Source of the DNA: a virus
DNA length: 36,848 nt
Virus record (IMG/VR): IMGVR_UViG_3300028568_000020
Reading direction: 5' to 3' (one strand)
Below are positions 2,941-36,848 of this stretch, piece by piece. How positions within the stretch are numbered: position 1 is the stretch's first letter; each line of letters begins with the position of its first letter. Under the pieces are notes generated by a model. It worked only from the letters and a program-made list of their open reading frames with translations, was not told the DNA's origin and did not search any database. The position numbers were made by a program, and so were the translations under genes.

Positions 2941-4137
2941 TTACATCACTTCCTTGTGTATCGCTTTCAAAACTGCTTCTGCAAATACAACTTGTTCTGG
3001 TTGTAACTGCTTTTGTAGTTCTTCAACAGTTGGTATTCTACCCAATATTTTTTCCATATTTCTTGCAACCTGTTTTACAGCATCAACTTTTGCTTCAATA
3101 GTTGTTTGTGTTTTGGGTTCGATATCAACACCTCTTGGAATTATTTTTTCGTTTGGTTGTGTTTTCATTGCTTCTTTAACTGTAATAGGTGTTTCTTGTT
3201 TAGGTGTTGCGGGTGTAACTTTTGTTAAATCCTGTATTGTTAAAGTTCTTAAAGTTATGTAAGTTATTTTTTCACCATCTTGTGAAACACTATCTTTTAA
3301 ACTTACAAGTTCCCCAATGGCTGTTATCTGAATACCTTTTGTTAAAACTGTTAGTTCTTCTATTGTTTCATCAATCCCAGATATACCTTCATTGGTATAA
3401 ACATCTGCCAAAACTGTATTAAGTTCGTCGTGGTTTATCCAAATAACACCGTTTTTATTACGCTGTAAGGAAACGGTAATATGGTTTTTAACACCTTTTT
3501 CACTAACACCAGTTTCCAGAACAAAATTTAATACTGGTCTGCCTTTTTCATCAAAAGGTTTTTCTGTATCAACTTTTTCCCCATCAACCCAAATAGGTAT
3601 TGAGTTAACCCAATTAATAACCCCTGTTATAACAACTGTATCATATTTTTCTTTAATTGAAAAATCGCTTTCTGTTGTCATTGTTATTTTTTCTAAAAAA
3701 GTGGGTATCTTGGAAACATCAAAGTTAGGTTCTTTAATCCCAAGATTTACAATAATGTTCTTATACTGGGTGTTGGGTGTTCCCCTAAACTTGTATTTTC
3801 CAATACTTGTAAAAACTTTACTATCCCAACTGGAAGCTGTCTTTACTGTTCCATCTGCAAATAATATTGGAAATGAATAGGGACTATTTTTTGTGCCATT
3901 TCTATCAACACCACAATTCGAAAGAACCACCCCTTCCATTTCTACACTATCTACAAGATTTTTTGCTTTTTGTAGTATTGCATTTTTAGCTATTCTTAAA
4001 GCCATTGTATCTTTGTATTTTTCAATACTACTTCTTTTTTCTTCTAAAATATCTAATGGATTAATACCTTCTTTTTCCAAAGTTTTGTATTCTTTCATTT
4101 TTCTTATTTCATTTTCTATTGTTTTAAAATCTGCCAT
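2941..4137 (-). CDS. Putative single-stranded DNA-binding protein (possible tandem OB folds)
   Basis: Two beta-rich segments with OB-like patterning (MEGVVL...; VVITGVINWV...ITAIGELV). First gene of the ATPase-helicase-nuclease-primase operon. Fold not confirmed. Confidence 0.4.
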   Translation of the reverse strand: MADFKTIENEIRKMKEYKTLEKEGINPLDILEEKRSSIEKYKDTMALRIAKNAILQKAKNLVDSVEMEGVVLSNCGVDRNGTKNSPYSFPILFADGTVKTASSWDSKVFTSIGKYKFRGTPNTQYKNIIVNLGIKEPNFDVSKIPTFLEKITMTTESDFSIKEKYDTVVITGVINWVNSIPIWVDGEKVDTEKPFDEKGRPVLNFVLETGVSEKGVKNHITVSLQRNKNGVIWINHDELNTVLADVYTNEGISGIDETIEELTVLTKGIQITAIGELVSLKDSVSQDGEKITYITLRTLTIQDLTKVTPATPKQETPITVKEAMKTQPNEKIIPRGVDIEPKTQTTIEAKVDAVKQVARNMEKILGRIPTVEELQKQLQPEQVVFAEAVLKAIHKEVM

Positions 4138-5766: not shown

Positions 5767-5985
5767 CTACTTTTTAAATATATCTTTGCCTGCTTCCCAT
5801 ATAGCAACAAATTCTTCTTCTGATACTGCATTATCATATAGTGCTTTTTCCACTATCTCAAAAAACATTTTCATTTTTGTTATTTTGGATTTTAGTATTT
5901 CCCAACCACCTATTGTTCCTATAACAAAAGTTACAACAAAAGGTAAAATTTTTAATAATATCTCAATTATCTGTGCTGTTTCCAT
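5767..5985 (-). CDS. Small membrane protein, holin-like
   Basis: One N-terminal hydrophobic helix (IIEILLKILPFVVTFVIGTIGGW) and a charged tail, after the tail genes. Start re-called at ATG 5985 after GGGGTG SD. Confidence 0.5.
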   Translation of the reverse strand: METAQIIEILLKILPFVVTFVIGTIGGWEILKSKITKMKMFFEIVEKALYDNAVSEEEFVAIWEAGKDIFKK

Positions 5986-6039
5986 TATTACCACCCCATA
6001 TTTTTATATTTTGGTTTATTTATATATTTAACTATAATT

Positions 6040-19130: not shown

Positions 19131-20168
19131 TTAATATTCCCCCTCAATTTTATTTAATTTATCTAATTTCCCCAAAACAGTTTCATCTAGTGATTTTGCA
19201 ATTATAGGTTCTTCTTTTACTTTACCCAATGGTATTTTCTTTTCCTCAACAACTGGTGTTTCTGATTTTTTTAATTTCTCAAAAACTAAACTTGCAATTT
19301 CTTCCGCTTCTTCTTTTGTAAGTCTAACTTTATAACCTTCTGGTGTTTTAACAACTTCTGGTTCTACTGCTACTTTGGGTTCAACCTTTTTAGTTTCTGC
19401 CTTTTCAATTTTGGGTTCTTTGAGTTTTTCCCATTCCCCCATTTTTGTTTTTATTTCTTTAATTTCCTTTTCTAAAACTTCCAATTTTGGAGTTTCAATA
19501 ACTGGTTCAACTTTTGTTTCTACTTTTTCTTCTTTAACAAAAGCTTCCCCTTCTTTAATATCTTCTTTCAATAAAATCCCCCCATTACTTATAGGTTTAA
19601 AAAAAGCCAATGGATTAGCACCTTTTTCTGTTATTGTTACTGCATCTAATGTTAAGTCATCTACACTTGTATAACAATTTTTCTTATCACAAACATAAGA
19701 TGTATTTATCTTATGCCCACTTATAGAAAACATATTATAAAAGCCATTTTGTATTTTTTGTATTAAAGATTTATTAAAATCATTATCATTGAAAATATTA
19801 GCAACAATGAACAGATATTTTTTTAAAGGTTCTAAATTTACATTCATTGATTTAAAAAAACTAATATCATATTCATTTGGGTAATCCACTTTGGTTCTTA
19901 AAAGAGTATCTTTATTAATAACAAATTCTGGTAAAATTTTTCCAACTATTGTATCCCTATGTTTATAAGAAACAGTTTGTCTTGTTAAAAGTTGTGGCAA
20001 TCTTTTTTCCAATGCTTCCATTTTAACAATTTCATTTTGGGTATCTAAAATTTCTGCACTTCCGATACCATAAATAACAAGTTCCCCTGTATCAGTTTCC
20101 CCTGCTTTCTGTATAAGACTATTAAAGAAAACATCTTGGGTATTTTTAATATACTCTACTTCCCCCAT
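19131..20168 (-). CDS. Prohead protease with C-terminal scaffold-like region
   Basis: IYGIGSAEILDTQNEIV, YKHRD (His), FSISG (Ser), VTITEKGANP; Glu/Lys/Pro-rich tail. Confidence 0.8.
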   Translation of the reverse strand: MGEVEYIKNTQDVFFNSLIQKAGETDTGELVIYGIGSAEILDTQNEIVKMEALEKRLPQLLTRQTVSYKHRDTIVGKILPEFVINKDTLLRTKVDYPNEYDISFFKSMNVNLEPLKKYLFIVANIFNDNDFNKSLIQKIQNGFYNMFSISGHKINTSYVCDKKNCYTSVDDLTLDAVTITEKGANPLAFFKPISNGGILLKEDIKEGEAFVKEEKVETKVEPVIETPKLEVLEKEIKEIKTKMGEWEKLKEPKIEKAETKKVEPKVAVEPEVVKTPEGYKVRLTKEEAEEIASLVFEKLKKSETPVVEEKKIPLGKVKEEPIIAKSLDETVLGKLDKLNKIEGEY

Positions 20169-21516: not shown

Positions 21517-23400
21517 TTAACTGTTATATTTTTCTAAAACTTCTCTATCCACCTGCCCAAAAAATGTTTTTTTCTCATTTGACCATTTAGTAACTTTTTT
21601 TATCGCATCCCTATTACCCATTTCTGATAAAACATAAAGAGAATAATTTTCTGCAAAAGTTTCCAAATATAAATTTTCTAAATTATAATTTTTTTCTTTT
21701 GAATAAGATGATGTATTAAATAATTCTTTTATTAAATGTTTTTGTTCTAAATCTACTAATTTTTCAAATAATTTATCACTTTCACTTTCAAATGTAGTAT
21801 AATCAATTTCATTATTTAATAATTGAGTATTTAAATCTTGAATTTGATTATGAATATCTTGTATTTGTTTCTGTTGGTCTAAATATAAATCTTCAATCAT
21901 CTTACTAAAAAATAACCTATTTTCTGAATTTTTCATATCAAACCCAAAATCTAAACTGTGTGAAATTTCGTGATATAAATTTCCCTCAAATGTTGGCATT
22001 GCGTGCTGTGGTATTCCATTTTCTTTTAAACTATCCAAATCTTCTAAATGCATTTTATACAGTATATATTCATCTAAACCGTGAACTCTTACTAAATTAT
22101 CGTCCATATAATCATTGTAACCCCAAGAACCAAAATCAGTATCCATTGTAATTAATTTAATTGGTAATTTACCATATCTTTCTTCCAATCTTTTTAATTC
22201 CAAAATCAATTTCCTTGAAGAAGATAATGTCTGTTCTTCTATCCATTTAATAAAAATATCATCTAATTCCTTACTTTTAAATTGCCCTACTGCCCATTTA
22301 CTCACCCACATTGAAGGGTCTTCTTCATAATCTTCTATAAGTTTTTTAAGAATACTATCTACCAATTCGGTTCGCATATCATAAAAATATCTAAAATAAG
22401 AACTTATACTAATTCTGAAATCATCATCTGCAATTATTCCTTTAAATCTACCGTTTATTTCTTCTGCCCCTAAATCAACTGGTGTTTTTAAATGGGTATC
22501 TGCCCACCTTTGTAACTGTTCCTCATTCATCTTACTTAAATCTGCATCATACGCTAACAAATCAACTTCTGGTTTTAACTTCTTGTCTGGTTCATAACTA
22601 TATTGACTGAAATATTTCCCCTGTTCCAACTCATATTGATAGTGGCACATACAGTTGGGGTGAAAAGGAATATCTGGGTTATTAAGTAAAGTATTTTCAT
22701 AAGGTTGGTCAATGGGTATTGCCCCCTGTGCTTCAAACTCTTTACACCGTTCACAACCCACAACCGTTTTTACCCTTTTCATTGTGTATCCCAATGATTT
22801 TGCTGATGCTAAACTTGCTTGTGTAAATACCCTTGTAGCTTCTGTTCTACCAACCATTTCCCAGTAAGTTTTATTATCCATCCCATAAGGATTTTCACCA
22901 AGTAACTTTTTTAAACCCCTTTCTGCCCTGTCATAACTATAACCTGTCATCATTAGTTCTTCCAAAAAACCAAATATGGCTTTTTTCTGTTCATCTTCCC
23001 AGCCTTGCATAAATGGGGTTTCATAAGTAGCAAAAAACTGTTCCAAAAAAGATAAATTGTAAGGTGTAACCTCATCTAAAAACCCACCTGTAACTTTTAA
23101 ATCTTCCTTTTTTAGTTCCTGTAAGGCAAACAACTTTTTAATGGAATACTCTTTATGGGTATCATTAAAACTTTTAAGATAAACATTTTTTAAGTAAATT
23201 GAAAGTAAAGATTTTAAAGCAACACTTGTGTCTTTAATATCCTCTTCAATATCTGTTACAAGTTGACTTCTACTTTTATGTTTTTCAAACTTTTTGACTA
23301 TACTTAAAATATTTTTTTGGTGCTGGTAATCCACCTTGTAAAGTTGTTCGGCAATAAACAAAAAGTAACTTTCAATTTCCTGTAAAGACTTTAACAACAA
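21517..23400 (-). CDS. MuF (gpF/SPP1 gp7-like) head protein with C-terminal zinc metallopeptidase-like extension
   Basis: RTEATR, CERC, PFHPNCMCHY (MuF); C-terminal HEISH (21958-21972) and ETFAE. Confidence 0.8.
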   Translation of the reverse strand: MLLKSLQEIESYFLFIAEQLYKVDYQHQKNILSIVKKFEKHKSRSQLVTDIEEDIKDTSVALKSLLSIYLKNVYLKSFNDTHKEYSIKKLFALQELKKEDLKVTGGFLDEVTPYNLSFLEQFFATYETPFMQGWEDEQKKAIFGFLEELMMTGYSYDRAERGLKKLLGENPYGMDNKTYWEMVGRTEATRVFTQASLASAKSLGYTMKRVKTVVGCERCKEFEAQGAIPIDQPYENTLLNNPDIPFHPNCMCHYQYELEQGKYFSQYSYEPDKKLKPEVDLLAYDADLSKMNEEQLQRWADTHLKTPVDLGAEEINGRFKGIIADDDFRISISSYFRYFYDMRTELVDSILKKLIEDYEEDPSMWVSKWAVGQFKSKELDDIFIKWIEEQTLSSSRKLILELKRLEERYGKLPIKLITMDTDFGSWGYNDYMDDNLVRVHGLDEYILYKMHLEDLDSLKENGIPQHAMPTFEGNLYHEISHSLDFGFDMKNSENRLFFSKMIEDLYLDQQKQIQDIHNQIQDLNTQLLNNEIDYTTFESESDKLFEKLVDLEQKHLIKELFNTSSYSKEKNYNLENLYLETFAENYSLYVLSEMGNRDAIKKVTKWSNEKKTFFGQVDREVLEKYNS

Positions 23401-24926
23401 ATTTTTTTTTTAACCATTTTTTCAAACTTTTCATATTTAACTGGGTCATCTATTACTTCTTCCACATCAATATATTGAACTTCTGGCTGTATCTGTTTTT
23501 GCTGGTTTTTAGCTTTTTCTGATACCACAATATCATTATCAACATATTGAACTTCAAAACCACTTGTTAAAAATATGTTTGCAGTTTCGGCTTTTATCTT
23601 TTGTATCTGGGCTTCCCTCAATTCATCTTTAATTGTAAAATCTGGAAATGCAATATAATAATCGGTAATCCCAAAAGCTTCCATTATTCGTTTATTAAAA
23701 GGTTCTTCAATTGTCCTAATCAAACCCCTTTTGGTTGAACCCATAACTACATCTTGTATATTTGGGTTGTTACCAGCTTTTCCACTTTCCACAACACCAG
23801 AAAATACTGGGGGCACTTCAAAAACACTTGCTAAAACTTCTCTATAAAACTTATACCATTCCAAACTTTGTAACTTTTCGGCATCTGGTAAAGCATCAAA
23901 CACCTTAATATCTGATGCCCCACTTATACCCAAATAAACATCATACAAAAATCTTTTTAACCCAAAACCTTCTCTAACATTATTTTCAACATTATCCCTA
24001 ATTTCATTTATCTGGTCTTGTGTTGCCCCATTGAAAACAAAAATCTTATTTAACTTTCTTTTAACAAAAATATCTGAATTTAAACTGTCCAATCCAATAA
24101 GTGCTTGTAACTGCTGTATAGCAGAAACCAGTTTTGGAGTTCCATATAAATCTGGCAACTGCCTGTTATAATGCCCCTCAATCATTTCTTCTTTTTTGTA
24201 TCTGGCAACAATAACATCACTATATGGAGTTTCCAATTTAATGTAATAAGTTTCCCACAACTCTGCTCCACATTCTGGACAAGTGGTTTCCCCATCTTTA
24301 TAAATTTTATCTGGTTTATAACACAATGGACAAAACTTTTCGTTTGGTGTTTCCCTTATTCTTATGTATCTTGGGTTTTCAACAAACAACCCAGTTGGAG
24401 TTTTTGAAAGTTTTTTATACCCACCTTGTTCATAAGTAAAAGAAACATTAACATAATAACGGTCTAATTTTAATTCCCACAATAAACAACTTCTAATAAT
24501 TTCATAAAAATCATAATTTGGGTTTGGGTCATCTACAAACTTATTTAATATGTTCTTATCTTGTATATTTGGTTTTCTTAATTTAGCCCCACATTCACAT
24601 AATTCCATTTCTGGTAAATGATTATATTCTTTTAAACACTTCTCATTAGTGCATTTAAAAGAAAACATTGGTTTTATTTCCCAATTATCTTTTGTGCATT
24701 CTTTTAACAACACACCTAAAATAGATGTCATTATTGCAGAACGGTCGCAATAATTTAAAAGTAAATCTTCATTCCAAACTAATGGTTTAATATAACTACT
24801 GGTATCATCATAAGTATTGGGTAAATTAGTTTTAGGTAAAGCTTTTAATTTTAATTCTGCCTTTTGTAATTTAAGTAATAAAATGTCAACATCATTTTTT
24901 CTTTTAAAAGAACTCAAAAACCCCAT
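23391..24926 (-). CDS. Portal protein with two Cys4 zinc-ribbon insertions
   Basis: YGTPKL, FEVPPVFSG, IEEPFNKRI, ETANIF portal motifs; inserts CTNEKC...CECG and CPLC...CPECG. Confidence 0.82.
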   Translation of the reverse strand: MGFLSSFKRKNDVDILLLKLQKAELKLKALPKTNLPNTYDDTSSYIKPLVWNEDLLLNYCDRSAIMTSILGVLLKECTKDNWEIKPMFSFKCTNEKCLKEYNHLPEMELCECGAKLRKPNIQDKNILNKFVDDPNPNYDFYEIIRSCLLWELKLDRYYVNVSFTYEQGGYKKLSKTPTGLFVENPRYIRIRETPNEKFCPLCYKPDKIYKDGETTCPECGAELWETYYIKLETPYSDVIVARYKKEEMIEGHYNRQLPDLYGTPKLVSAIQQLQALIGLDSLNSDIFVKRKLNKIFVFNGATQDQINEIRDNVENNVREGFGLKRFLYDVYLGISGASDIKVFDALPDAEKLQSLEWYKFYREVLASVFEVPPVFSGVVESGKAGNNPNIQDVVMGSTKRGLIRTIEEPFNKRIMEAFGITDYYIAFPDFTIKDELREAQIQKIKAETANIFLTSGFEVQYVDNDIVVSEKAKNQQKQIQPEVQYIDVEEVIDDPVKYEKFEKMVKKKICC

Positions 24927-26172: not shown

Positions 26173-26197
26173 GGTTATATATATAAAGTTATTGGTT
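26173..26197 (-). promoter_or_regulatory. Archaeal BRE-TATA promoter
   Basis: Minus strand AACCAATAACTTTATATATATAACC. Confidence 0.72.
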
Positions 26198-26448
26198 CAA
26201 CCATATTTTAATTTTAACCCTATCATTAACAACGAAAGCATTAAAGAAATATAATTAGAAATAACAATAGGTGCATCTTGCTTTAATACCCCATAAATAC
26301 ACCACAAAAAAAGTCCACCTGCTAAAATACCCCAGTATAAAAGGGATAAATCTTTTGTTTCTTTTAATTTAATTACCTTAATAACTTGTGGTAAAATTGA
26401 AACAGTTGTTAATGTAGTTGCAACAAAACCCAATAAAATTAAATCCAT
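26197..26448 (-). CDS. SemiSWEET / PQ-loop (MtN3-saliva) transporter
   Basis: 83 aa, three TM helices, T-x-S-x-L-P-Q PQ-loop, ETKDLS, LWCIYG, PIVISN. Confidence 0.9.
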   Translation of the reverse strand: MDLILLGFVATTLTTVSILPQVIKVIKLKETKDLSLLYWGILAGGLFLWCIYGVLKQDAPIVISNYISLMLSLLMIGLKLKYG

Positions 26449-26710: not shown

Positions 26711-27948
26711 TAGAACACCACGCCAGAACTCGGTCTATGAGAAACATTTCTGATATAGTTTGTATAAAGTGCATATCGTAAGGCATCGCATAAGTGGTCG
26801 TGATACTTAATGGGTTCTTCTAATATGTTCCCATCCCTATCTTTTCGATAACTATAATTCTGGATTTCTTCTATAAGGTTAACACTTTCAATATCAATGT
26901 GCAACTTATGCCTTTTAACATAATCAATACCATCTTTAACACTTTTTTCTGCTGGGAAACAATAAAAACCACTTTCCCTTATTTCTTCTATCCTACTGGG
27001 TTCGGCACAATCTGCATAAATTATATCTTTCCGATTATCCAATATTATATCTAATTTTTTTATTAAATCTGTATTGGTTAATTTGGTTTGGTAAAGTTTT
27101 TCCTGAACATAAAACTGTTCGTCATATTCCATAACCTTTATTAATCCAGTTTCTGCATTATACCCAAAATCCAAACCCCAGAAAGTATTTTTGGGTTCAA
27201 ACTTCCACCTTGTGTTTTCCTCTATTGTGTAATTGGAGTAAATGAGGTTTCCAACCTGCCCCCAATCACCCCTTGTATAAATACTAAAATAATTTTCATC
27301 TTCCCCAGCAAGTGTTGCCAACTGATTAATATATTCTCTGGGCAAAAATGGGTTATCTTCCCAAGTGCTATGATGTATAGCCATATCTTCTGCTGGCTGG
27401 CTAACAATTTTTTTATACAGCCAATGGTGAATTGAAATTGGGTTAAAGGTTAAAAACATTTGATTAAAGGTATCACTATTACGCCTTAATCTTAAATTTA
27501 ACTGCATATATTTTTCGAAAGTTATTTCTGTTGCTTCTTCTATCCAGATATAATTGGCTTCAAAACTTTTAATTTTTTCCTCGTCATCAATGGATTTAAA
27601 AAAGATAACATTTTTATTTGATGGGTGTTTTATGGTTAAATCACTATGGTTTATCGTAAATTGCAAACCTGTATTCTGGGTGACATCTGAAAGCAGTTGT
27701 GAAATTAGCATAAAGCAAGTTATTTTAAGTGCTGGCAATGTATTTCTAACAACAAGAAACACCTTATCTTCTTTTTCCAAAAAAAGTTTGACTAACCATT
27801 GGGCAGTTGAAACAGATTTACCAGAACCTGCACCCCCATAAATTACCAGTTTTCTCTTATCAAAATTTAGGGTAAAAAAATCCCAAAATGAACCAATTAA
27901 ATTAATTTCCATCTTCGGTTGTTCCATCTGCATCAGTATCCTTTTCAT
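26707..27948 (-). CDS. terL: Terminase large subunit (PBSX-like); true start probably 27912 or 27927
   Basis: Walker A YGGAGSGKS, Walker B IWIEEATE, LTFNP, RGDW, nuclease GLDFGY and DHLCDALRY. Confidence 0.95.
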   Translation of the reverse strand: MKRILMQMEQPKMEINLIGSFWDFFTLNFDKRKLVIYGGAGSGKSVSTAQWLVKLFLEKEDKVFLVVRNTLPALKITCFMLISQLLSDVTQNTGLQFTINHSDLTIKHPSNKNVIFFKSIDDEEKIKSFEANYIWIEEATEITFEKYMQLNLRLRRNSDTFNQMFLTFNPISIHHWLYKKIVSQPAEDMAIHHSTWEDNPFLPREYINQLATLAGEDENYFSIYTRGDWGQVGNLIYSNYTIEENTRWKFEPKNTFWGLDFGYNAETGLIKVMEYDEQFYVQEKLYQTKLTNTDLIKKLDIILDNRKDIIYADCAEPSRIEEIRESGFYCFPAEKSVKDGIDYVKRHKLHIDIESVNLIEEIQNYSYRKDRDGNILEEPIKYHDHLCDALRYALYTNYIRNVSHRPSSGVVFY

Positions 27949-28573
27949 CTTCCACCACTTTTGCTTCTGTTACCACAAGATTATCAAATAAATCTCTATG
28001 TGGATTTTTATCATTTATAATATTGTAAGTTATCTGTATCTTGTTATTGGCTTTGGGTTCTTTTTCCTTATCCAACCCCATAATAATTCTTTCCAACTCA
28101 ATCCCAGTTTTTATAAACTGTAATATTTCCATTGGTCTTAAACCTGCTAGGTCTGGTTCACCATTAATAAAAGTTTCTAATTTTTTTAAACTTTCTTTCC
28201 CAATATTGTGTAACTCCCTTGCAGTTTCTTCCTGTTGGGTTATGTATCTTTTACGCTGTTCCATCTTGGCTTCTATTTCTGTTTGTTGCAACAAACTATC
28301 ATATAACTTTGCCCTGTCCCACCACTTGTTCTTTTTTGCGTGTTTAGCCATTAAAATGTAAGTTCTACCTTTTGTTCTGGCAACATTGGAAATACTCCTA
28401 TCAGCACCCTGCCTTAAAAATTCACAAAAATAATCAAACTGTTTTGCTGTTTCTTGTGGTAATCGTTTATCCAAATAGTTTTCCAAGTCTTTAATCGTTT
28501 CATTGGATATTGTTAATGCCTTGCGTGGTCTGCCCCCAACACTTTTTCCTGCCTCCCCACCTTTCACAAACAT
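27902..28573 (-). CDS. Terminase small subunit (probable)
   Basis: Directly upstream of terL; GGRPRK, F..F...G..RS+..VA, W.DRA..YD pattern; coiled coil. Confidence 0.7.
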   Translation of the reverse strand: MFVKGGEAGKSVGGRPRKALTISNETIKDLENYLDKRLPQETAKQFDYFCEFLRQGADRSISNVARTKGRTYILMAKHAKKNKWWDRAKLYDSLLQQTEIEAKMEQRKRYITQQEETARELHNIGKESLKKLETFINGEPDLAGLRPMEILQFIKTGIELERIIMGLDKEKEPKANNKIQITYNIINDKNPHRDLFDNLVVTEAKVVEDEKDTDADGTTEDGN

Positions 28574-30613: not shown

Positions 30614-32413
30614 TTAACCACCCCAACTTTTTCCTATTGTTATGTCTACATCAATCTTAACATCTGCTATAAATTGATACCACGCTTCCATCATACAATT
30701 TTTTAGTTCCCTGCTTATCCTTTCACTATCTGTTTCCTTACATTCTAAAACTATTTCATCGTGAACAATAGCCACAATTTTAACTGATCTTAATTCACTA
30801 CATAATAATGTTTTAAATATGTTAAATAGTGCTACTTTTAATATATCAGCACCAGTTCCTTGAACTGGCGTATTATATAGTTCTCCTGTAATATAATCCT
30901 TGTCATACCTTCTTATCCTGCCACCTAATGTAACACTATAATCTTTTCTACTTAATTTACTATGCCAGTCTTTTAAACCCCTATAAGTTTCAAAAAATCT
31001 TTTTTTAAATATTTCTGCTTTACCCAATGTTATCTCTAAACCAAAATTGGTCTTGGCATAATCCTTAAAACTTTCTGCCCCCATACTGTATAAAAACCCA
31101 AAATTAAATGACTTGGCTTGGTATCTTTGTTCCTTTGTTACCTGTTCTTTTGGGACACCCAGAAGTTTGCTGGCACTTAAAGTGTGTAAATCTTCACCCA
31201 ACTCATAAGCCTTTAACATGACTGGGTCTTGTGATAAATGGGTAGCTATACGCAGTTCTATCTGTGAATAGTCCGCTTTTATCAATACACCCCCATCTTC
31301 TTGTGCCTTAAAACACTTTCTATAATTCTTTTCCCTCGGCACTTGCTGTATATTGGGGTTGTTGCAACTAAACCTTCCAGTTGCTGTTCCTATCAGATTA
31401 TATTTTGGGTGTAATCTGTTATCTTTCGAACTTTTATATTTCTGATATTCCTTTCCAAAACTTGTTAATTTTTTTGATATTGTTTTATACTCAATCAATA
31501 GTGGCAGAACTGGGTGTCTGTCTTTTATGGTGTCTAAAAAGTCTTTCCCAGTTGTTTCCACTTTAATACCCAAGTTTAAATCTTGTAATACTTCTTTAAG
31601 CTGTATTGGTGAATTTAAGTTAATATGCCTATCCAACATAATTAAAATTTGGTCTTCCAGTTTATCATATTCAAACTGTAATTGTTGGGCAATAAGTTCC
31701 CAATCATTAAAATCCAGATAAATGCCATCTTTAATGCACCTTACTATTGTTGGAATACAGTTAATGTCAATGTTAAATGCCTTTGTTAATCCCATTTGTT
31801 CCAACTTATTTTTTAATATCCCATACAGTTCATAAGTTACTTCTACATCTTTTTTGGCATATCTTACTTGGTCAATACTTAATTTTTTAATCAACCAATT
31901 TCCAGTTTGTTCTGATTTATCTAACTTTATGTTAAGGTATTTGTTGCATAAATCTTCCAAACTAAATCCTTTTCTGTTTAATCCACAATCAATTATTTTT
32001 TCTGCCACTTGTGTATCAAATAACTTAAAATCTGTTCTTTTGATGTGGGCATAAGGGTAAAGCATACTTAAATCAAATATGGCATTATGGAAAACTAATA
32101 TGCCATTGGTGTAATTTAATAAGATGTTAACAATATATCTTTTTTGTTCATCATCATAATCAAAAAAATCAAATATAAAAACTTCATCATTATCAATTTT
32201 AACTTGTAGTAATCTTACATAATCTTCACTAAAATCCAACCCTGTTGTTTCTGTGTCAATGGCAATAATATTAGAACCCATTATTTTTAACATTGTATCT
32301 TTTAGGTTATCCCATTGTGCTGTTACCATCACATTGTTAAATTCTTTTTGAATATCTGCCTTTTGTTTTAAGGTATCTTCAAAACTAAATAATGTTTCTT
32401 GAACCCCTACCAT
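30614..32413 (-). CDS. polA: Family A DNA polymerase with 3'-5' exonuclease, no 5'-3' exonuclease
   Basis: ExoI IAIDTETTG, ExoII HNAIFDL, ExoIII YAKKD; motif A KADYSQIELR, motif B RYQAKSFNFGFLY, motif C VHDEI; TGRFSCNNPNIQQVPR. Confidence 0.95.
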   Translation of the reverse strand: MVGVQETLFSFEDTLKQKADIQKEFNNVMVTAQWDNLKDTMLKIMGSNIIAIDTETTGLDFSEDYVRLLQVKIDNDEVFIFDFFDYDDEQKRYIVNILLNYTNGILVFHNAIFDLSMLYPYAHIKRTDFKLFDTQVAEKIIDCGLNRKGFSLEDLCNKYLNIKLDKSEQTGNWLIKKLSIDQVRYAKKDVEVTYELYGILKNKLEQMGLTKAFNIDINCIPTIVRCIKDGIYLDFNDWELIAQQLQFEYDKLEDQILIMLDRHINLNSPIQLKEVLQDLNLGIKVETTGKDFLDTIKDRHPVLPLLIEYKTISKKLTSFGKEYQKYKSSKDNRLHPKYNLIGTATGRFSCNNPNIQQVPREKNYRKCFKAQEDGGVLIKADYSQIELRIATHLSQDPVMLKAYELGEDLHTLSASKLLGVPKEQVTKEQRYQAKSFNFGFLYSMGAESFKDYAKTNFGLEITLGKAEIFKKRFFETYRGLKDWHSKLSRKDYSVTLGGRIRRYDKDYITGELYNTPVQGTGADILKVALFNIFKTLLCSELRSVKIVAIVHDEIVLECKETDSERISRELKNCMMEAWYQFIADVKIDVDITIGKSWGG

Positions 32414-32423
32414 TTAATTTCCC

Positions 32424-34124
32424 CTAAAAGTAATTTTGCAATGTAGATTGTTCCCCATCATCTAAATCTAATTTACCAAAAATTTCATTTATTTTTTTAG
32501 CATCCCCTTTAAAAAATACTAAAACATTTTGGTGCATTTTACCAATTTTTCTTGAATTATTAAAAATTTTACCTGCCCTAATAGGTAAAGTCCCAATAGA
32601 ATTAACTAAAATAATTTCATTATATTTTAAAGCACCCCATTTCGTAAAAATATTAACCGTTTCTTCTGGTAAATTTCTATAAAAACCCTTTTCATCCCTT
32701 ACATCACCTACAACAAATACAGCAAATCTGTTATTTTTTAATTTATCTAATGACTTTTTGATAATTGAACTATACACTTCTAAAAATTGATTATAAGTCA
32801 TGTTGCTTAAATCCTGTTTGTTATCAGAATAAACCTCTAAATCAAAATATGGGGGGCAACTAAAAATTAAATCTACACTTTCATTTTCAATTAAATCTAA
32901 AACTTGATTACTATCCCCAGTTAACCAAACTGGATTAATATAATCATCTTGTTGTTTTTTTGCTGTTTCCCTGATACCAATTATCCAAAATAAATCACCA
33001 CTTTCTAAAAATGGGATGCATTTTGCTTCATAAATTGGGTCTAATTCTATTCCTTTAAAATTAGTTGTTGGTGCAAATTTATGGTAATCTAAACCACTAT
33101 CAATTAAAGTTACCTTTTCTTTCCAATCACTTGGTGCATATTTATTTAATCTTTCCTCTGGATTAGCACCAACACAAACACCCAAAACTTTAATATTTAA
33201 ATTTTGTTCTTTTAATCCCCATAATAATCCACTTAAAGACATTCCACTCCCAACAGTTATAACAATTCTTTTTACATCAGTTGGTATATCCACAACTTGT
33301 TGTTTTGTTTGATTAATAACTTCATCACATTCCATTCCAAAAGGTATTTCTGCCCATCCCAAATTTTTAGCATCTTCTCTTGCTCTTGCAACAATAACAC
33401 TATTATACCCTGCTTTATGTTGAATAATCTCTGCACCCTTTTCTTGTGCCCTAATTAATTCTGGTGAAAGTTCACCTTGTGGGGTGTGTGCCCTGCATTT
33501 TAAATTTAATCTTTTGGCTAATGTTGCAACAATATTAACTTGTGGTGATGAACGACTCCCTGCTGTAACAACACCTGTTGTTTTTAAGTTTTTCATTAAA
33601 CCCCAAGCTGTTCTAACTTTTCCACCACAAACACCATCAATAGTAAATAAATCTTCCCTTTTAAACCACATATCATCTATTTTTTGGATAGGTGTAACAA
33701 AATTAAATATAGAATTATTTGTTTTATTTTTAGGTTTTATATCTATCCATTGTTGTTCATTTGCTTCAATTTGTCTTTGACTTAAATCAATGCCTATATA
33801 GGGGTAACCTGATAAGGAAGCTACAATGCCCCTCACACTCCCACCAGCAAAACAATCTAATATTTTTCCATTTTCAACATTAAACCACTCGTAACAAATT
33901 TCACATAAAGCTGGGTCAAAAATACTTGTTTCTTGTGATTGTTTTATGCCATACTTTTTTTCATCAAATCCTTTTGGCAAACACCCAGCATCTCTCCCCA
34001 GTTCCCCTTTTATACCAAGTTTTAACCATTTTTTTCTTCTGTCTATCCAATATTGTTGTTTTGTGTCAAAAACACTAAATGGGGGTATTAAAAATTTGTC
34101 TTCTAATTTATTGAATTTTTTCAT
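32424..34124 (-). CDS. SAM-dependent amino-methyltransferase-like protein split by an in-frame fold-type II PLP enzyme domain
   Basis: MTase motifs ILDCFAGGS, GIDL, GDS, DLIFSCPPY; insert (aa ~143-386, nt ~32967-33698) with KREDL..GGKVR, TAGSRSSPQ, VGSGMS, LDPIYEAK. Confidence 0.85.
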   Translation of the reverse strand: MKKFNKLEDKFLIPPFSVFDTKQQYWIDRRKKWLKLGIKGELGRDAGCLPKGFDEKKYGIKQSQETSIFDPALCEICYEWFNVENGKILDCFAGGSVRGIVASLSGYPYIGIDLSQRQIEANEQQWIDIKPKNKTNNSIFNFVTPIQKIDDMWFKREDLFTIDGVCGGKVRTAWGLMKNLKTTGVVTAGSRSSPQVNIVATLAKRLNLKCRAHTPQGELSPELIRAQEKGAEIIQHKAGYNSVIVARAREDAKNLGWAEIPFGMECDEVINQTKQQVVDIPTDVKRIVITVGSGMSLSGLLWGLKEQNLNIKVLGVCVGANPEERLNKYAPSDWKEKVTLIDSGLDYHKFAPTTNFKGIELDPIYEAKCIPFLESGDLFWIIGIRETAKKQQDDYINPVWLTGDSNQVLDLIENESVDLIFSCPPYFDLEVYSDNKQDLSNMTYNQFLEVYSSIIKKSLDKLKNNRFAVFVVGDVRDEKGFYRNLPEETVNIFTKWGALKYNEIILVNSIGTLPIRAGKIFNNSRKIGKMHQNVLVFFKGDAKKINEIFGKLDLDDGEQSTLQNYF

Positions 34125-34174
34125 TTTTTTATCTCCTGTAATTTTTTTATTATTGTGAAAAAATTTAATTTATT

Positions 34175-34861
34175 TTATTCATTCATTGGTTTTATCTTGT
34201 TGAAATAATACATAAATGGGGTGTCAATTAAAGCATTTAATACTTTAAATAAATATCCTAATATCCCCATATTCAATAAAACATAATTTGGAAAAACTCC
34301 ATAAAATGCTATTGTTAAAAATATTAGGGTATCAAATATGCTTGCTACCATTGTTGATGCATTATTTCTTAACCATAATTTCTTTTCACCAGTTTGGTCT
34401 TTTATTTTATGAAATATTGTAACATCTATAATACTTGAAAAAGTATAAGCTATTATTGATGCTAAAGCTATTCTGGGCATTAAGGCAAATATGGCTTGTA
34501 AAGATGGTCTTGCCCAATCTTCAAAAGATGGCACATAAAGTAGCATTATCTGGGTGTAAAAAGTAAAAATTACCATTCCTGCTATCCCCAGATAACAAGC
34601 CTGTTTTGCTAATTTTTTTCCATACTTTTCACTTATAAAATCTGTTGCCAGATAACTTAAACTGTAAGTGTTCCCAATACCTGCAATTAAACCAAATATT
34701 GATGCTAATTGTAAAACTGCTATATTGGCATATATTATATATATGGGTATTAAAATAAAAAGCCCGATTTTCCCAAATATTTTATATAGCACAAGCAGTA
34801 ATCCTGCCCCTATTAAAAATTCTACAATCCACAAAATTGAGTTAAACAAAATTTCATTCAT
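34175..34861 (-). CDS. yhhQ: YhhQ/VUT-family (DUF165) 7-deazaguanine (queuosine precursor) transporter
   Basis: About six TM helices; IYANIAV, IGNTY, LATDFISEKYGKK.A, PRIALASIIAYTFS, LWLRNNASTMVASIFDT. Confidence 0.88.
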   Translation of the reverse strand: MNEILFNSILWIVEFLIGAGLLLVLYKIFGKIGLFILIPIYIIYANIAVLQLASIFGLIAGIGNTYSLSYLATDFISEKYGKKLAKQACYLGIAGMVIFTFYTQIMLLYVPSFEDWARPSLQAIFALMPRIALASIIAYTFSSIIDVTIFHKIKDQTGEKKLWLRNNASTMVASIFDTLIFLTIAFYGVFPNYVLLNMGILGYLFKVLNALIDTPFMYYFNKIKPMNE

Positions 34862-34869
34862 TTTTTCAT

Positions 34870-34930
34870 TGTCTCCTTTTATTTTTTTATCCCATTAAAC
34901 TGGGGTTGAGTAACCGTTTTAATGAGTAGT
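34870..34930 (-). promoter_or_regulatory. Structured 5' leader of yhhQ (riboswitch candidate)
   Basis: Stem CUCAUUAAA/UUUAAUGGG, inner GGUU-ACUC-AACC hairpin, then AUAAAAAAAUAAAA and AGGAG SD. Confidence 0.35.
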
Positions 34931-34941
34931 TTAAATTAATA

Positions 34942-34966
34942 GGTTATATATATAAAGGTTTTGATT
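34942..34966 (-). promoter_or_regulatory. Internal archaeal promoter for yhhQ
   Basis: Minus strand AATCAAAACCTTTATATATATAACC overlapping the end of the dpdA-like gene. Confidence 0.7.
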
Positions 34967-35732
34967 TTAACTTCCAATAAACTTCCAATCTGTTCTGTAA
35001 TTTACTCCATTCAACAAAAGACCAATTTCTAAAATAGTTTGTCTTTTGTGGTTGCGCCCTGTATTTATTTAAAGTAACTAATTTATCTTTATTATAAACA
35101 ATCAAGTCCCCAAATCTACAACTATTAACCCAAGAACTGCTATCAACACTATCAAAATTAAATCTAAAAATATCATTCATTGCTGTTAAAGCAAAACCGT
35201 GCACTAATGTCTTATTTTTATGGGCGTAATCTAACATTGGCTGGATATACCTGTAATCAATTTCCCTTCCAAAACCCACATATTTAAATTCCTTACAATA
35301 ATTTTTCCAATCATTTAAAGTTCTATTAAAACCTAATTTGCTATCCAGACCATGCCAAACTGCTATTGGGGGTTCACCAATACAATCCCATAAATAATGT
35401 CTTATTTCTTTTACTTTTTTATACGGTATAATATTATCAATATCCATTTCTACATAATTATCCCAGTAATCATAATTTTTTTTTAACCATCTAATGTAAT
35501 TTTCTACATATTTATCAACTGTTTGTTCATCTATATGTTCTAATTTTTGCAAGGTGAAAGCCCCACTATCTATCATAAGATAATGATTTTTTAGTATATT
35601 GGCTTTATGTATTCTATTTAAATCTTGGTCTTTAAAATAAGTAAAAGATATAAGATTACTTGAACTTAAATTTAAATTTTTTGAATTAATAACATTAAAA
35701 TCTGCCCAACCAAAAGATAAAAGTAATTTCAA
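34944..35732 (-). CDS. dpdA: DpdA-like tRNA/DNA-guanine transglycosylase (TGT fold)
   Basis: MIDSGAF, VEMDID, AVWH, VGFG, VHGFALT, FDSVDSSSW; adjacent to yhhQ. Start re-called at TTG 35732 after GGTGA. Confidence 0.78.
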   Translation of the reverse strand: MKLLLSFGWADFNVINSKNLNLSSSNLISFTYFKDQDLNRIHKANILKNHYLMIDSGAFTLQKLEHIDEQTVDKYVENYIRWLKKNYDYWDNYVEMDIDNIIPYKKVKEIRHYLWDCIGEPPIAVWHGLDSKLGFNRTLNDWKNYCKEFKYVGFGREIDYRYIQPMLDYAHKNKTLVHGFALTAMNDIFRFNFDSVDSSSWVNSCRFGDLIVYNKDKLVTLNKYRAQPQKTNYFRNWSFVEWSKLQNRLEVYWKLKSKPLYI

Positions 35733-35733
35733 T

Positions 35734-36204
35734 TCATTCACCAAAAAAATCTGTTAATTTATTCTGGTTTCTTTTCCCCTGTTCAATCTTTTCAATTTGT
35801 TCCAATGTTAAATTACTTGTGGGTAAAAACAAATCAGAAACAATATATCCAGTAATCACTTCTTGAAATTCTTTTGTTGTTCTCATAAGGTATTCATATA
35901 ATAAGTCGGCATTGAAAGAACTGTATTGGTCAGAAAGATTACAAGATAACATAAACTCAATTTCTTCTTGGGTATCTTTAAATTCTTTAACAATAACTGG
36001 TATTTCTTTTTTACCCAGTAATTTACAAGCATTAAATCTGGCATTACCATCTATTATTTCATTTTGGGTATTGATTACAATAGGTTGAACAATACCAAAT
36101 TTTTCAATCAATGTTACCATTAATACAGTTGTTTTGTCAATATTCTTTAAAGTTGTATATTTTTCTTTTAATTCATCAATATTTTTTTCTATTATTTGTC
36201 TTAT
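35734..36204 (-). CDS. ParB/Sulfiredoxin-like N-terminal domain protein; start ATA 36204 or GTG 36213
   Basis: FGIVQPIVIN...IIDGNARFNACKLLG...IPVIV...LSCN; C-terminal QNKLTDFF. Confidence 0.82.
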   Translation of the reverse strand: MRQIIEKNIDELKEKYTTLKNIDKTTVLMVTLIEKFGIVQPIVINTQNEIIDGNARFNACKLLGKKEIPVIVKEFKDTQEEIEFMLSCNLSDQYSSFNADLLYEYLMRTTKEFQEVITGYIVSDLFLPTSNLTLEQIEKIEQGKRNQNKLTDFFGE

Positions 36205-36209
36205 GTAAA

Positions 36210-36289
36210 TCACCCCTTATTATTGTGATAAACCAAGTGGGTTTTTGGTGATGTAAAAAGTTACCCACTTGGAAACGGTTTCACCGTTT
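36210..36289 (-). promoter_or_regulatory. Two-hairpin intercistronic leader with anti-SD loop
   Basis: AAACGG/CCGTTT hairpin, then a 10-bp stem CCAAGTGGGT/ACCCACTTGG whose loop holds ATCACC, complementary to the downstream GGTGAT SD. Confidence 0.5.
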
Positions 36290-36320
36290 TTTAAATGAAG
36301 GCTTCTTGGACGGTATAAGT

Positions 36321-36488
36321 TTAATCACCCATTAATTCATCAATATTATTTAACACCCAATCTAAACATTCCATTATGCCCTCTATTCTGGCTACTGTGG
36401 TTGGGTATATTATATCCCTTGCGTGTTTGTTATACTGGGCATCAAAAAATTCTTTTGCATCTCTTATTTCCTGTTCTGTTCTAATCAT
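36321..36488 (-). CDS. Hypothetical 55-aa protein (not in ORF track)
   Basis: MIRTEQEIRDAKEFF...ARIEGIMECLDWVL; AGTGA SD. Confidence 0.6.
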   Translation of the reverse strand: MIRTEQEIRDAKEFFDAQYNKHARDIIYPTTVARIEGIMECLDWVLNNIDELMGD

Positions 36489-36493
36489 TTAAA

Positions 36494-36604
36494 TCACTTT
36501 CCTTCATCTTTAAACCCAAACCAATAGATTTGAGTTACTGTTTTTTCCAACACTTCTAAACTAACACTCTTTTTTTCAGATTTTTTTAGTTGTATTGTAT
36601 TCAC
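36494..36604 (-). CDS. Hypothetical 36-aa protein (not in ORF track)
   Basis: GGTGA SD, GTG start, first ORF after the promoter. Confidence 0.45.
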   Translation of the reverse strand: MNTIQLKKSEKKSVSLEVLEKTVTQIYWFGFKDEGK

Positions 36605-36630
36605 ATACATCACCATATTATCAAATACAA

Positions 36631-36654
36631 GTTATATATATAAACCTTTTGGTT
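36631..36654 (-). promoter_or_regulatory. Archaeal BRE-TATA promoter of the modification operon
   Basis: Minus strand AACCAAAAGGTTTATATATATAAC. Confidence 0.78.
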
Positions 36655-36655
36655 T

Positions 36656-36711
36656 GTTACTAATTGGCAATTAGTAGTTCCCCCATAAGTTACTAATTGG
36701 TAATTAGTAGT
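36656..36711. repeat. Pair of palindromic operator-like boxes
   Basis: GTTACTAATTGG(C/T)AATTAGTAGT at 36656 and 36689, 33-bp period; each contains TACTAATT-N3-AATTAGTA. Confidence 0.75.
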
Positions 36712-36848
36712 ATTAACACCCCTATATTAAACACATCAAATATATATGTTTTTAATAACTGGTTGTTTAAAACACTTAAACAGTTGTTTAAAATAAAAGA
36801 AAATAAAATGGGTGTGTTTTAATACACCCTATCTTTTAAATAACGGCT

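Follow-up and report, generated by a model that had tools for sequence, protein, structure and literature searches.

The window analysed here, a stretch of 36,848 nucleotides from a virus (IMG/VR virus record IMGVR_UViG_3300028568_000020), carries all of its genes on the minus strand. Those between positions 30,614 and 36,213 encode, in order, a ParB_N protein, a DpdA-like DNA transglycosylase, a YhhQ/Vut_1 transporter, an N6_N4 methylase with an inserted pyridoxal phosphate (PLP)-dependent domain of the PALP family, and a family A DNA polymerase (PolA). Three of these products bear, at one terminus, a short peptide resembling the PCNA-interacting peptide (PIP) box, the motif by which clients bind the archaeal and eukaryotic sliding clamp PCNA. 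Its consensus is Q-x-x-[ILM]-x-x-aromatic-aromatic, and it usually lies at the extreme N- or C-terminus (PMC3504372). The three proteins and their terminal peptides are as follows.

35734–36213, minus strand: ParB-like protein, 159 aa (Pfam ParB_N, E=5e-10; phrog_498 positions 34-156).
35743–35766, minus strand: its C-terminal octapeptide QNKLTDFF, followed by GE and the stop codon; canonical PIP-box pattern.
32424–34124, minus strand: methyltransferase fold with an inserted PLP-dependent (PALP) domain, 566 aa (Pfam PALP and N6_N4_Mtase), hereafter methylase::PLP.
32427–32450, minus strand: its C-terminal octapeptide QSTLQNYF, followed directly by the stop codon; canonical PIP-box pattern.
30614–32413, minus strand: PolA, 599 aa, with a 3′-5′ exonuclease domain (DNA_pol_A, E=3e-85; DNA_pol_A_exo1, E=8e-31).
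32381–32401, minus strand: N-terminal QETLFSF of PolA, residues 5-11; a near-PIP sequence that also fits the QxxLF type of clamp motif.

A scan of 44 open reading frames (ORFs; 10,968 residues) with the strict pattern Q..[LIM]..[FY][FY] returned exactly two occurrences, one in the ParB-like protein and one in methylase::PLP, which end 2 and 0 residues from the C-terminus, respectively. The same scan found the motif on none of the structural proteins. Chance alone would produce 0.63 occurrences in the whole proteome and 0.013 within the last five start positions of the 44 proteins, so that two or more terminal hits have a Poisson probability of 8e-5; the two strict motifs are thus far from chance, though the test is post hoc. 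QNKLTDFF and QSTLQNYF also conform to the broader consensus Q-x-x-[ILM]-x-x-[FYW]-[FYW], which PolA does not, the sequence QETLFSFE having E at position 8. A reading made earlier from the sequence alone had placed the three motifs at these coordinates, had described two as exact C-terminal matches and the polymerase motif as a near match, and had seen no such motif on structural proteins; direct inspection agrees on each count. All three peptides occupy an extreme terminus, and in the monomer model of the ParB-like protein residues 149-159 have a predicted local distance difference test (pLDDT) value below 50, as expected of a flexible region. Literature searches turned up no account of PIP boxes on the modification enzymes of archaeal viruses.

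The ParB-like motif is under clear constraint and is the strongest of the three cases. In a set of 5.8 billion proteins, only three other clusters of stand-alone ParB-like proteins were found, and all of their members, at 47-61% identity, end QNK[LI][TS]DFFG[DE]. Across these homologues the residues Q, N, K, D, F, F and G of the tail are invariant while the flanking sequence diverges. The tail is missing from the termini of the homologues in Enterococcus, Listeria, Fusobacterium, Pseudanabaena and Erythrobacter phages; the bacterial-phage homologues examined, like that of the haloarchaeal virus HCTV-2, carry acidic tails. The nearest record, a 9.9-kb fragment (G001), yielded no ParB-like or PCNA match.

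Alignment with the fusion proteins of Enterococcus phiFL3A, Listeria B054 and Fusobacterium Funu2 reveals that the ParB-like and methylase ORFs are the two halves of a single ParB-methylase gene, with the PALP domain, of about 270 aa, inserted into the methylase. Together they cover the fusion family phrog_498 at positions 34-156 and 354-616 and retain its hallmarks, namely ParB_N, the junction L-x-[DE]-[RK]-F-x-x-PPFS and the N6_N4 methylase, and thus constitute a split member of that family. The junction sequence of 101 unsplit homologues is x-x-[ST]-L-x-[ED]-[RQK]-F-[LGVI]-[VI]-PPF[ST]. The ParB-like protein terminates right after the homologous L-T-D-F-F, and the methylase half retains a junction copy of its own near its N-terminus, NKLEDKFLIPPFS, which includes the sister copy NKLEDKF. 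Position 1 of the junction is Q in only one of the 101 unsplit homologues and position 7 is aromatic in none, so that two of the four PIP-defining residues, the L and the last F, pre-existed at the junction, and the Q and the first F are peculiar to the split ParB-like proteins. The ParB motif therefore appears, from these alignments, to have arisen by exaptation of an old domain-junction peptide: fission of the ParB-methylase gene would have been followed by substitutions that introduced Q1 and F7 into a segment of the form R-x-[ST]-L-x-[DE]-[RK]-F. Neither the split-gene relation nor the junction origin of the motif had been recognised in the sequence-only reading.

The tail of methylase::PLP has a much narrower distribution. 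Its family comprises 5120 homologues at E <= 1e-10, and the best 120 of these are mostly longer than 600 aa and carry an N-terminal extension from the ParB side. Among these 120, a relative at 85% identity ends QSTLTNYLG; the other 118 have no such motif and mostly end in acidic tails, as do Pam4, R6L and the haloarchaeal HCTV-2.

More distant virus groups present tails that may be related in function. In a 32% GC sediment contig (L051:212-5144), a methylase::PLP at 56% identity lies immediately upstream of an intein-bearing family B polymerase (PolB), and the former ends QTGLLDKWI and the latter MQTLDKWL, so that the peptide LDKW[IL] is common to both. A second group of IMG/VR genomes (L004 and L027-L031) encodes the PLP enzyme and the methylase as separate genes. 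Its methylases end Q-x-[TS]-L-x-E-W-[LI] (with L in place of Q in L029) and each of its PolB proteins, which are nearest to those of haloarchaeal viruses, ends WL; in L030 an ERCC4/HhH nuclease likewise ends WL, and an AAA_24 protein ends KW. Methylase tails that match the clamp-type tails of a polymerase are what clamp tethering predicts, and these two groups supply hints of it that are independent of the window. The group of L004 and L027-L031 also carries an RFC-like clamp-loader gene adjoining one for a protein of about 405 aa that has no assigned family and could be a divergent clamp. A further methylase::PLP (P0011), 52% identical and devoid of a ParB domain, ends ...YYQSSLFGDAGFS, which places a QxxLF pentapeptide of the beta-clamp/PCNA2 type near its C-terminus.

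PolA, which has no 5′ nuclease domain, begins MVGVQETLFSFE. Homologues at 68, 61 and 56% identity keep a version of its motif (QETLLNC, QLNLFNF and QETLLSFY, respectively), such that the clade down to 56% identity displays Q-x-x-L-[FL]-x-[FC] within residues 3-11 and the full sequence QETLLSFY occurs at its 56% member. The PolA homologues listed at 41% identity or below do not carry the motif, and those among them with a named source are bacterial. Both QETLF and QLNLF fit the bacterial beta-clamp pentapeptide Q-x-x-L-F, which the two C-terminal motifs do not, even though the virus looks archaeal. In the archaeon Sulfolobus, PolB1 binds PCNA2 through QLTLF (PMC3504372). By analogy, both flavours of motif, PIP and QxxLF, are compatible with PCNA.

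Between the two halves of the split gene lie the following genes.

34944–35744, minus strand: DpdA-like DNA transglycosylase (phrog_887, queuine tRNA-ribosyltransferase, E=2e-30); its true start may lie downstream of the listed TTG.
34175–34861, minus strand: YhhQ/Vut_1 queuosine-precursor transporter (Pfam Vut_1, E=7e-45; TIGR00697, E=5e-49, above the cut-off).

The DpdA-like protein gave no match to Pfam, NCBIfam or PADLOC models. The sequence-only reading had held that it lacks a PIP box; a loose version, QNRLEVYW, is in fact present nine residues from its end, but relatives read SRRVELHW at this position, and the candidate was rejected as unconserved. The ParB-DpdA-YhhQ cassette occurs next to PolA, without methylase::PLP, in three relatives (L039, L040 and L042), in each of which the DpdA-like gene follows the ParB-like gene. 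Conversely, the sister genome that shares the 85% methylase (L034) has methylase::PLP and no cassette. The occurrence of each without the other implies that the ParB-like protein belongs functionally with DpdA, and the persistence of its tail where methylase::PLP is absent makes it less likely that the tail serves merely to dock the methylase half. This synteny favours the previously proposed link between the two proteins, and the ParB-like protein probably works with the DpdA-like transglycosylase, perhaps by direct contact. In bacteria, DpdA is paired with DpdB, a ParB-fold ATPase that is stimulated by DpdA-DNA (PMC10164549). The ParB-like protein of the window matches the N-terminal part of the PADLOC model MTase_II and none of the PADLOC DpdB models; it keeps a GxxRxxA-type motif as GNARFNA where DGQQR characterises DpdB, and it is only 159 aa long. 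It is thus not a DpdB family member but, by analogy, may work similarly.

The region between the Prim-Pol/D5 helicase gene and PolA (window positions 30614-36848) is a swappable cassette slot in this virus group. It holds ParB-DpdA-YhhQ in L040 and L042, methylase::PLP alone in L034, both in the window, an EcoRI-type methylase in L049 and almost nothing in L050. In some pairs of genomes, PolA and TerL are more than 90% identical while the ParB-like proteins are only 47-53% identical.

The window represents most or all of the genome of a tailed virus that, to judge from its genes, is very probably archaeal. Among 50,697 phage records, its major capsid protein (MCP) matches only archaeal viruses, namely vir519 (Methanofastidiosa; 34% identity, E = 2e-49), Haloarcula tailed viruses and vir335 (Methanomassiliicoccales). 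The portal protein matches only vir519, the protease only Haloarcula viruses and vir519, and a 913-aa tail protein only a Nitrososphaera provirus. The premise of an archaeal virus was therefore borne out, and the carriers of the motifs would act in a PCNA-bearing cell: if the virus is taken as archaeal, the clamp of its host would be PCNA. Ribosome-binding sites are mostly of the GGTG type. In four genes that lack a Shine-Dalgarno sequence, a TATA-like box (TTTAAATA or TATATAA) precedes the start codon (ATG) by 29-32 nt, a placement that matches the geometry of archaeal leaderless transcripts.

5767–5994, 19131–20168, 23391–24926 and 27902–28573, minus strand: genes with a TATA-like box and no Shine-Dalgarno sequence.

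No lysis genes or tRNAs that could serve as host markers, and no endolysin, were recognised among the ORFs scanned; a search of genome contigs with the MCP alone yielded no relatives, and the contigs of MCP relatives (3-5 kb) carry no host genes. The nearest Atlas clusters of YhhQ are bacterial, and hence uninformative on the host.

Several further properties of the genome were observed. The contig ends coincide with the site at which relatives hold a Prim-Pol/D5 primase-helicase of 518-705 aa; this gene, which in relatives sits between an exonuclease gene and two small ORFs, is missing here, and the two small ORFs are kept at 36214-36848. The contig probably lacks about 2 kb of the complete genome.

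1–140 and 36214–36848: contig-end regions flanking the missing Prim-Pol/D5 gene.

Short palindromes are avoided to an extreme degree across positions 1-36848. Against an expectation of 96 each, the observed counts are 1 for GATC, 0 for GTAC, 2 for ACGT, 2 for GANTC, 4 for CTAG, 12 for CATG and 12 for TCGA; against about 18 each, they are 0 for GGCC, 1 for CCGG, 1 for GCGC and 0 for CGCG. TGCA and GTNAC are not avoided in the window. This pattern suggests that the host possesses many restriction systems, and it is in keeping with a virus that, in addition, invests in DNA modification. A SemiSWEET/PQ-loop transporter gene (26197-26448, minus strand; 83 aa; Pfam PQ-loop, MtN3_slv) adjoins the terminase genes and is kept in L042.

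Residues 116-159 of the ParB-like protein, supplied as an alignment, were folded together with PCNA_METTH, which served as a stand-in for the PCNA of the true host. The complex scored 0.60, compared with 0.23 for the best of three controls, and was judged to give weak support; the runs share at least 89% of their contacts and the partner pLDDT is at least 53. Of 80 solved complexes, 58 attain the mark applied to this score, as do 2 of 110 mismatched pairs. The structural check proposed in the sequence-only reading is thus weakly supportive, the ParB tail scoring above the controls on a stand-in clamp.

No virus-encoded clamp was found in the window. The one candidate considered was the only large protein of the replication module without an assigned family, which in relatives lies beside an AAA_24 gene.

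2941–4137, minus strand: 398-aa protein, no Pfam or PHROG match.

A model of this protein (pLDDT 58) matches multi-oligonucleotide-binding-fold (OB-fold) proteins in Foldseek, including single-strand-binding protein (SSB), RPA and LEF-3. As a clamp it was rejected on the strength of these OB-fold matches, which come from a low-confidence model; it probably serves the virus as its single-strand-binding protein. Comparison with the 406-aa protein beside the clamp loader of L030 showed no similarity in sequence.

Taken together, these observations are best explained by tethering of the modification enzymes and the polymerase to host PCNA, a reading that we consider evenly poised between right and wrong. 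It is favoured because of the archaeal-virus affiliation, the non-chance placement of the termini, the conservation of the ParB tail and the lack of a viral clamp among the genes found. In the proposed mechanism, the virus, having no clamp of its own, would dock the terminal motifs of three enzymes into the hydrophobic pocket of the host PCNA ring, the carriers being the ParB-like protein (QNKLTDFF-GE), methylase::PLP (QSTLQNYF) and the start of the family A polymerase (QETLFSF). Such tethering would give the polymerase processivity and would place the modification enzymes on newly made viral DNA. We infer both PCNA binding and modification in step with replication from the motifs and their context. 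A more elaborate version is tentative and, on balance, doubtful. It would have a bacterial-type PolA, the ParB/DpdA 7-deazaguanine insertion module, with a PIP box born of fission and two substitutions, and methylase::PLP share the PCNA trimer as a tool belt and hypermodify the DNA during its synthesis, in an arrangement that, as the matching methylase and PolB tails of two other virus groups suggest, would recur across archaeal viruses.

A number of observations weigh against PCNA tethering. The ParB octapeptide occupies a position homologous to that of a conserved structural segment in which the L, the D/E and an F pre-existed, and part of its conservation could thus be inherited; moreover, the four ParB-like clusters form one clade, and their agreement does not amount to four independent lines. 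The comparison of archaeal-virus with bacteriophage homologues, advanced earlier as a check, succeeded insofar as the ParB tail is kept in relatives and missing from the bacterial-phage homologues examined, but the motif is not general in archaeal-virus homologues, being absent from that of the haloarchaeal HCTV-2, and the methylase tail is narrow. The latter occurs, among the best 120 homologues, only in the window and the 85% relative; the 56% relative shows shifted spacing (QTGLLDKWI), and the other methylases of the sister genomes L042 and L049 have no such tail. The polymerase motif lacks the second aromatic residue and is non-canonical. As to the predicted complex, only seven of the 80 solved complexes, together with both of the mismatched pairs that passed, reach the mark with scores at or below 0.60, a range in which, without a good prior, most passes are false; the pass may also reflect likeness to solved PIP-PCNA complexes and not binding by this copy. 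Finally, TerL, PolA, YhhQ and the ParB-methylase are closest to bacterial or bacteriophage relatives, so that the archaeal assignment rests on the morphogenetic module; the genome is evidently a mosaic, its replication and modification genes resembling bacterial and phage ones and its structural genes those of archaeal viruses.

Alternatively, the terminal peptides might be docking tails for other viral proteins, with the ParB tail, for example, addressing DpdA or PolA within a virus-only replication-modification complex. There is a model for such an arrangement in phage T7, whose polymerase is bound by the C-terminal tails of gp2.5 and gp4, which are acidic and end in an aromatic residue. The methylase tail is itself acidic with an aromatic end (LDLDDGEQSTLQNYF), acidic tails prevail in most homologues, and the ParB-like gene is always beside DpdA and near PolA; the shared tails of L051 and L030 could equally address a viral factor. 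The L030 group, moreover, encodes an RFC-like clamp loader, and so probably a clamp of its own (PMC4889955). Against this, two proteins match the PIP consensus exactly in both spacing and residues, including a Q-x-x-L that tails of the T7 type do not need. In addition, the predicted complex of the ParB tail with PCNA outscores the controls, if weakly, and no viral hub protein was identified in the window. We regard viral docking as unlikely.

We consider it quite unlikely that the ParB tail is a leftover first element of the methylase domain, retained after the fission for folding or by descent, and that the methylase and PolA motifs arose by chance in an AT-rich genome whose proteome is rich in F, Y, L, N and K. 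Alignment of the octapeptide with the junction L-x-[DE]-[RQK]-F-[LIV]-[VI]-PPFS of the 101 homologues, the sister copy NKLEDKF at the methylase N-terminus, the derivation of the ParB-like clusters from one clade and the lack of conservation of the methylase motif beyond 85% identity all accord with such an origin. Chance, however, would have to account for two strict C-terminal hits (P ~8e-5), and inheritance for Q1 and F7, which depart from the junction consensus and yet are shared by all split homologues despite divergence of the remaining sequence to 47% identity. The tail is also kept in genomes that lack methylase::PLP, and a detached N-terminal element of another domain has no obvious folding role and is modelled at low confidence. 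The reading of the tail as a junction remnant only was downgraded for its invariance in relatives and its presence without the methylase. A bacterial host, in which the motifs would be variants of the beta-clamp-binding sequence (QL[SD]LF or QxxLxF), is highly improbable. It would suit the bacterial and phage affinities of PolA, TerL, YhhQ and the ParB-methylase and the fit of the PolA N-termini QETLF and QLNLF to the bacterial pentapeptide, and the corresponding residues in the PolA of a faecal phage read QPSLF. Four morphogenetic proteins nevertheless match archaeal viruses only, no recognisable endolysin is present among the scanned ORFs, and the C-terminal motifs have the spacing of a PIP box and not that of a beta-clamp motif.

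If PCNA tethering is correct, it would be a new form of a known mechanism. PIP boxes are C-terminal in FEN1, PolB and the RFC large subunit, and N-terminal in UNG2, MSH6 and DNA ligase I; the PolA start MVGVQETLFSF is similar to the N-terminal boxes of UNG2 and MSH6, and QNKLTDFF and QSTLQNYF fit the consensus of archaeal and eukaryotic PCNA clients exactly. The carriers differ from those clients in being viral proteins, namely a ParB-fold protein, a methylase::PLP chimera and a family A polymerase, and to our knowledge none of these is a known PCNA client. The proposal resembles the association of DNMT1 with PCNA in eukaryotes, in that a clamp-tethered enzyme would modify new DNA as it is made; however, the proteins are unrelated, the PIP box of DNMT1 is internal, near its N-terminus, and the chemistry here is probably 7-deazaguanine insertion together with a methylase::PLP reaction of unassigned type, in a virus. 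We know of no prokaryotic or viral DNA-modification enzyme that uses PCNA as DNMT1 does, nor of any family A polymerase that uses PCNA.

The partial resemblance to the bacterial DpdA/DpdB pair (PMC10164549) lies in the placement of a DNA transglycosylase beside a ParB-fold NTPase with the NTP-binding GxxRxxA-type motif kept. Unlike DpdB, the ParB-like protein of the window is far smaller, has a PIP-like tail instead of a C-terminal helical domain and originates from the N-domain of a ParB-methylase. With the phage ParB-N6/N4 fusions of phrog_498 (Enterococcus phiFL3A gp36, Listeria B054 gp77) it shares a family that the two ORFs cover end to end, although here the gene is split at the junction, with DpdA and YhhQ between its two parts; it has also gained a PLP domain, and each part terminates in a PIP-like peptide of a kind missing from the fusions. 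Among viruses, SIRV2, which infects archaea, reportedly recruits the host sliding clamp (Gardner and colleagues, 2014), and the T4 and RB69 polymerases have a clamp-binding C-terminal tail, T4 using its own clamp. As in these cases, short terminal peptides or small proteins would give a virus that lacks a full replisome the use of a ring clamp; unlike here, the SIRV2 interactors are not modification enzymes.

Outside T4-type phages, little is understood of how viruses manage to modify their DNA completely while it is being replicated. The terminal peptides offer simple baits with which to fish for host PCNA. Should they bind it, this virus would supply the first example of a 7-deazaguanine or methylase machinery tethered to a clamp and of a family A polymerase adapted to a clamp of archaeal type; it would also illustrate clearly how gene fission can turn a domain boundary into a short linear motif.

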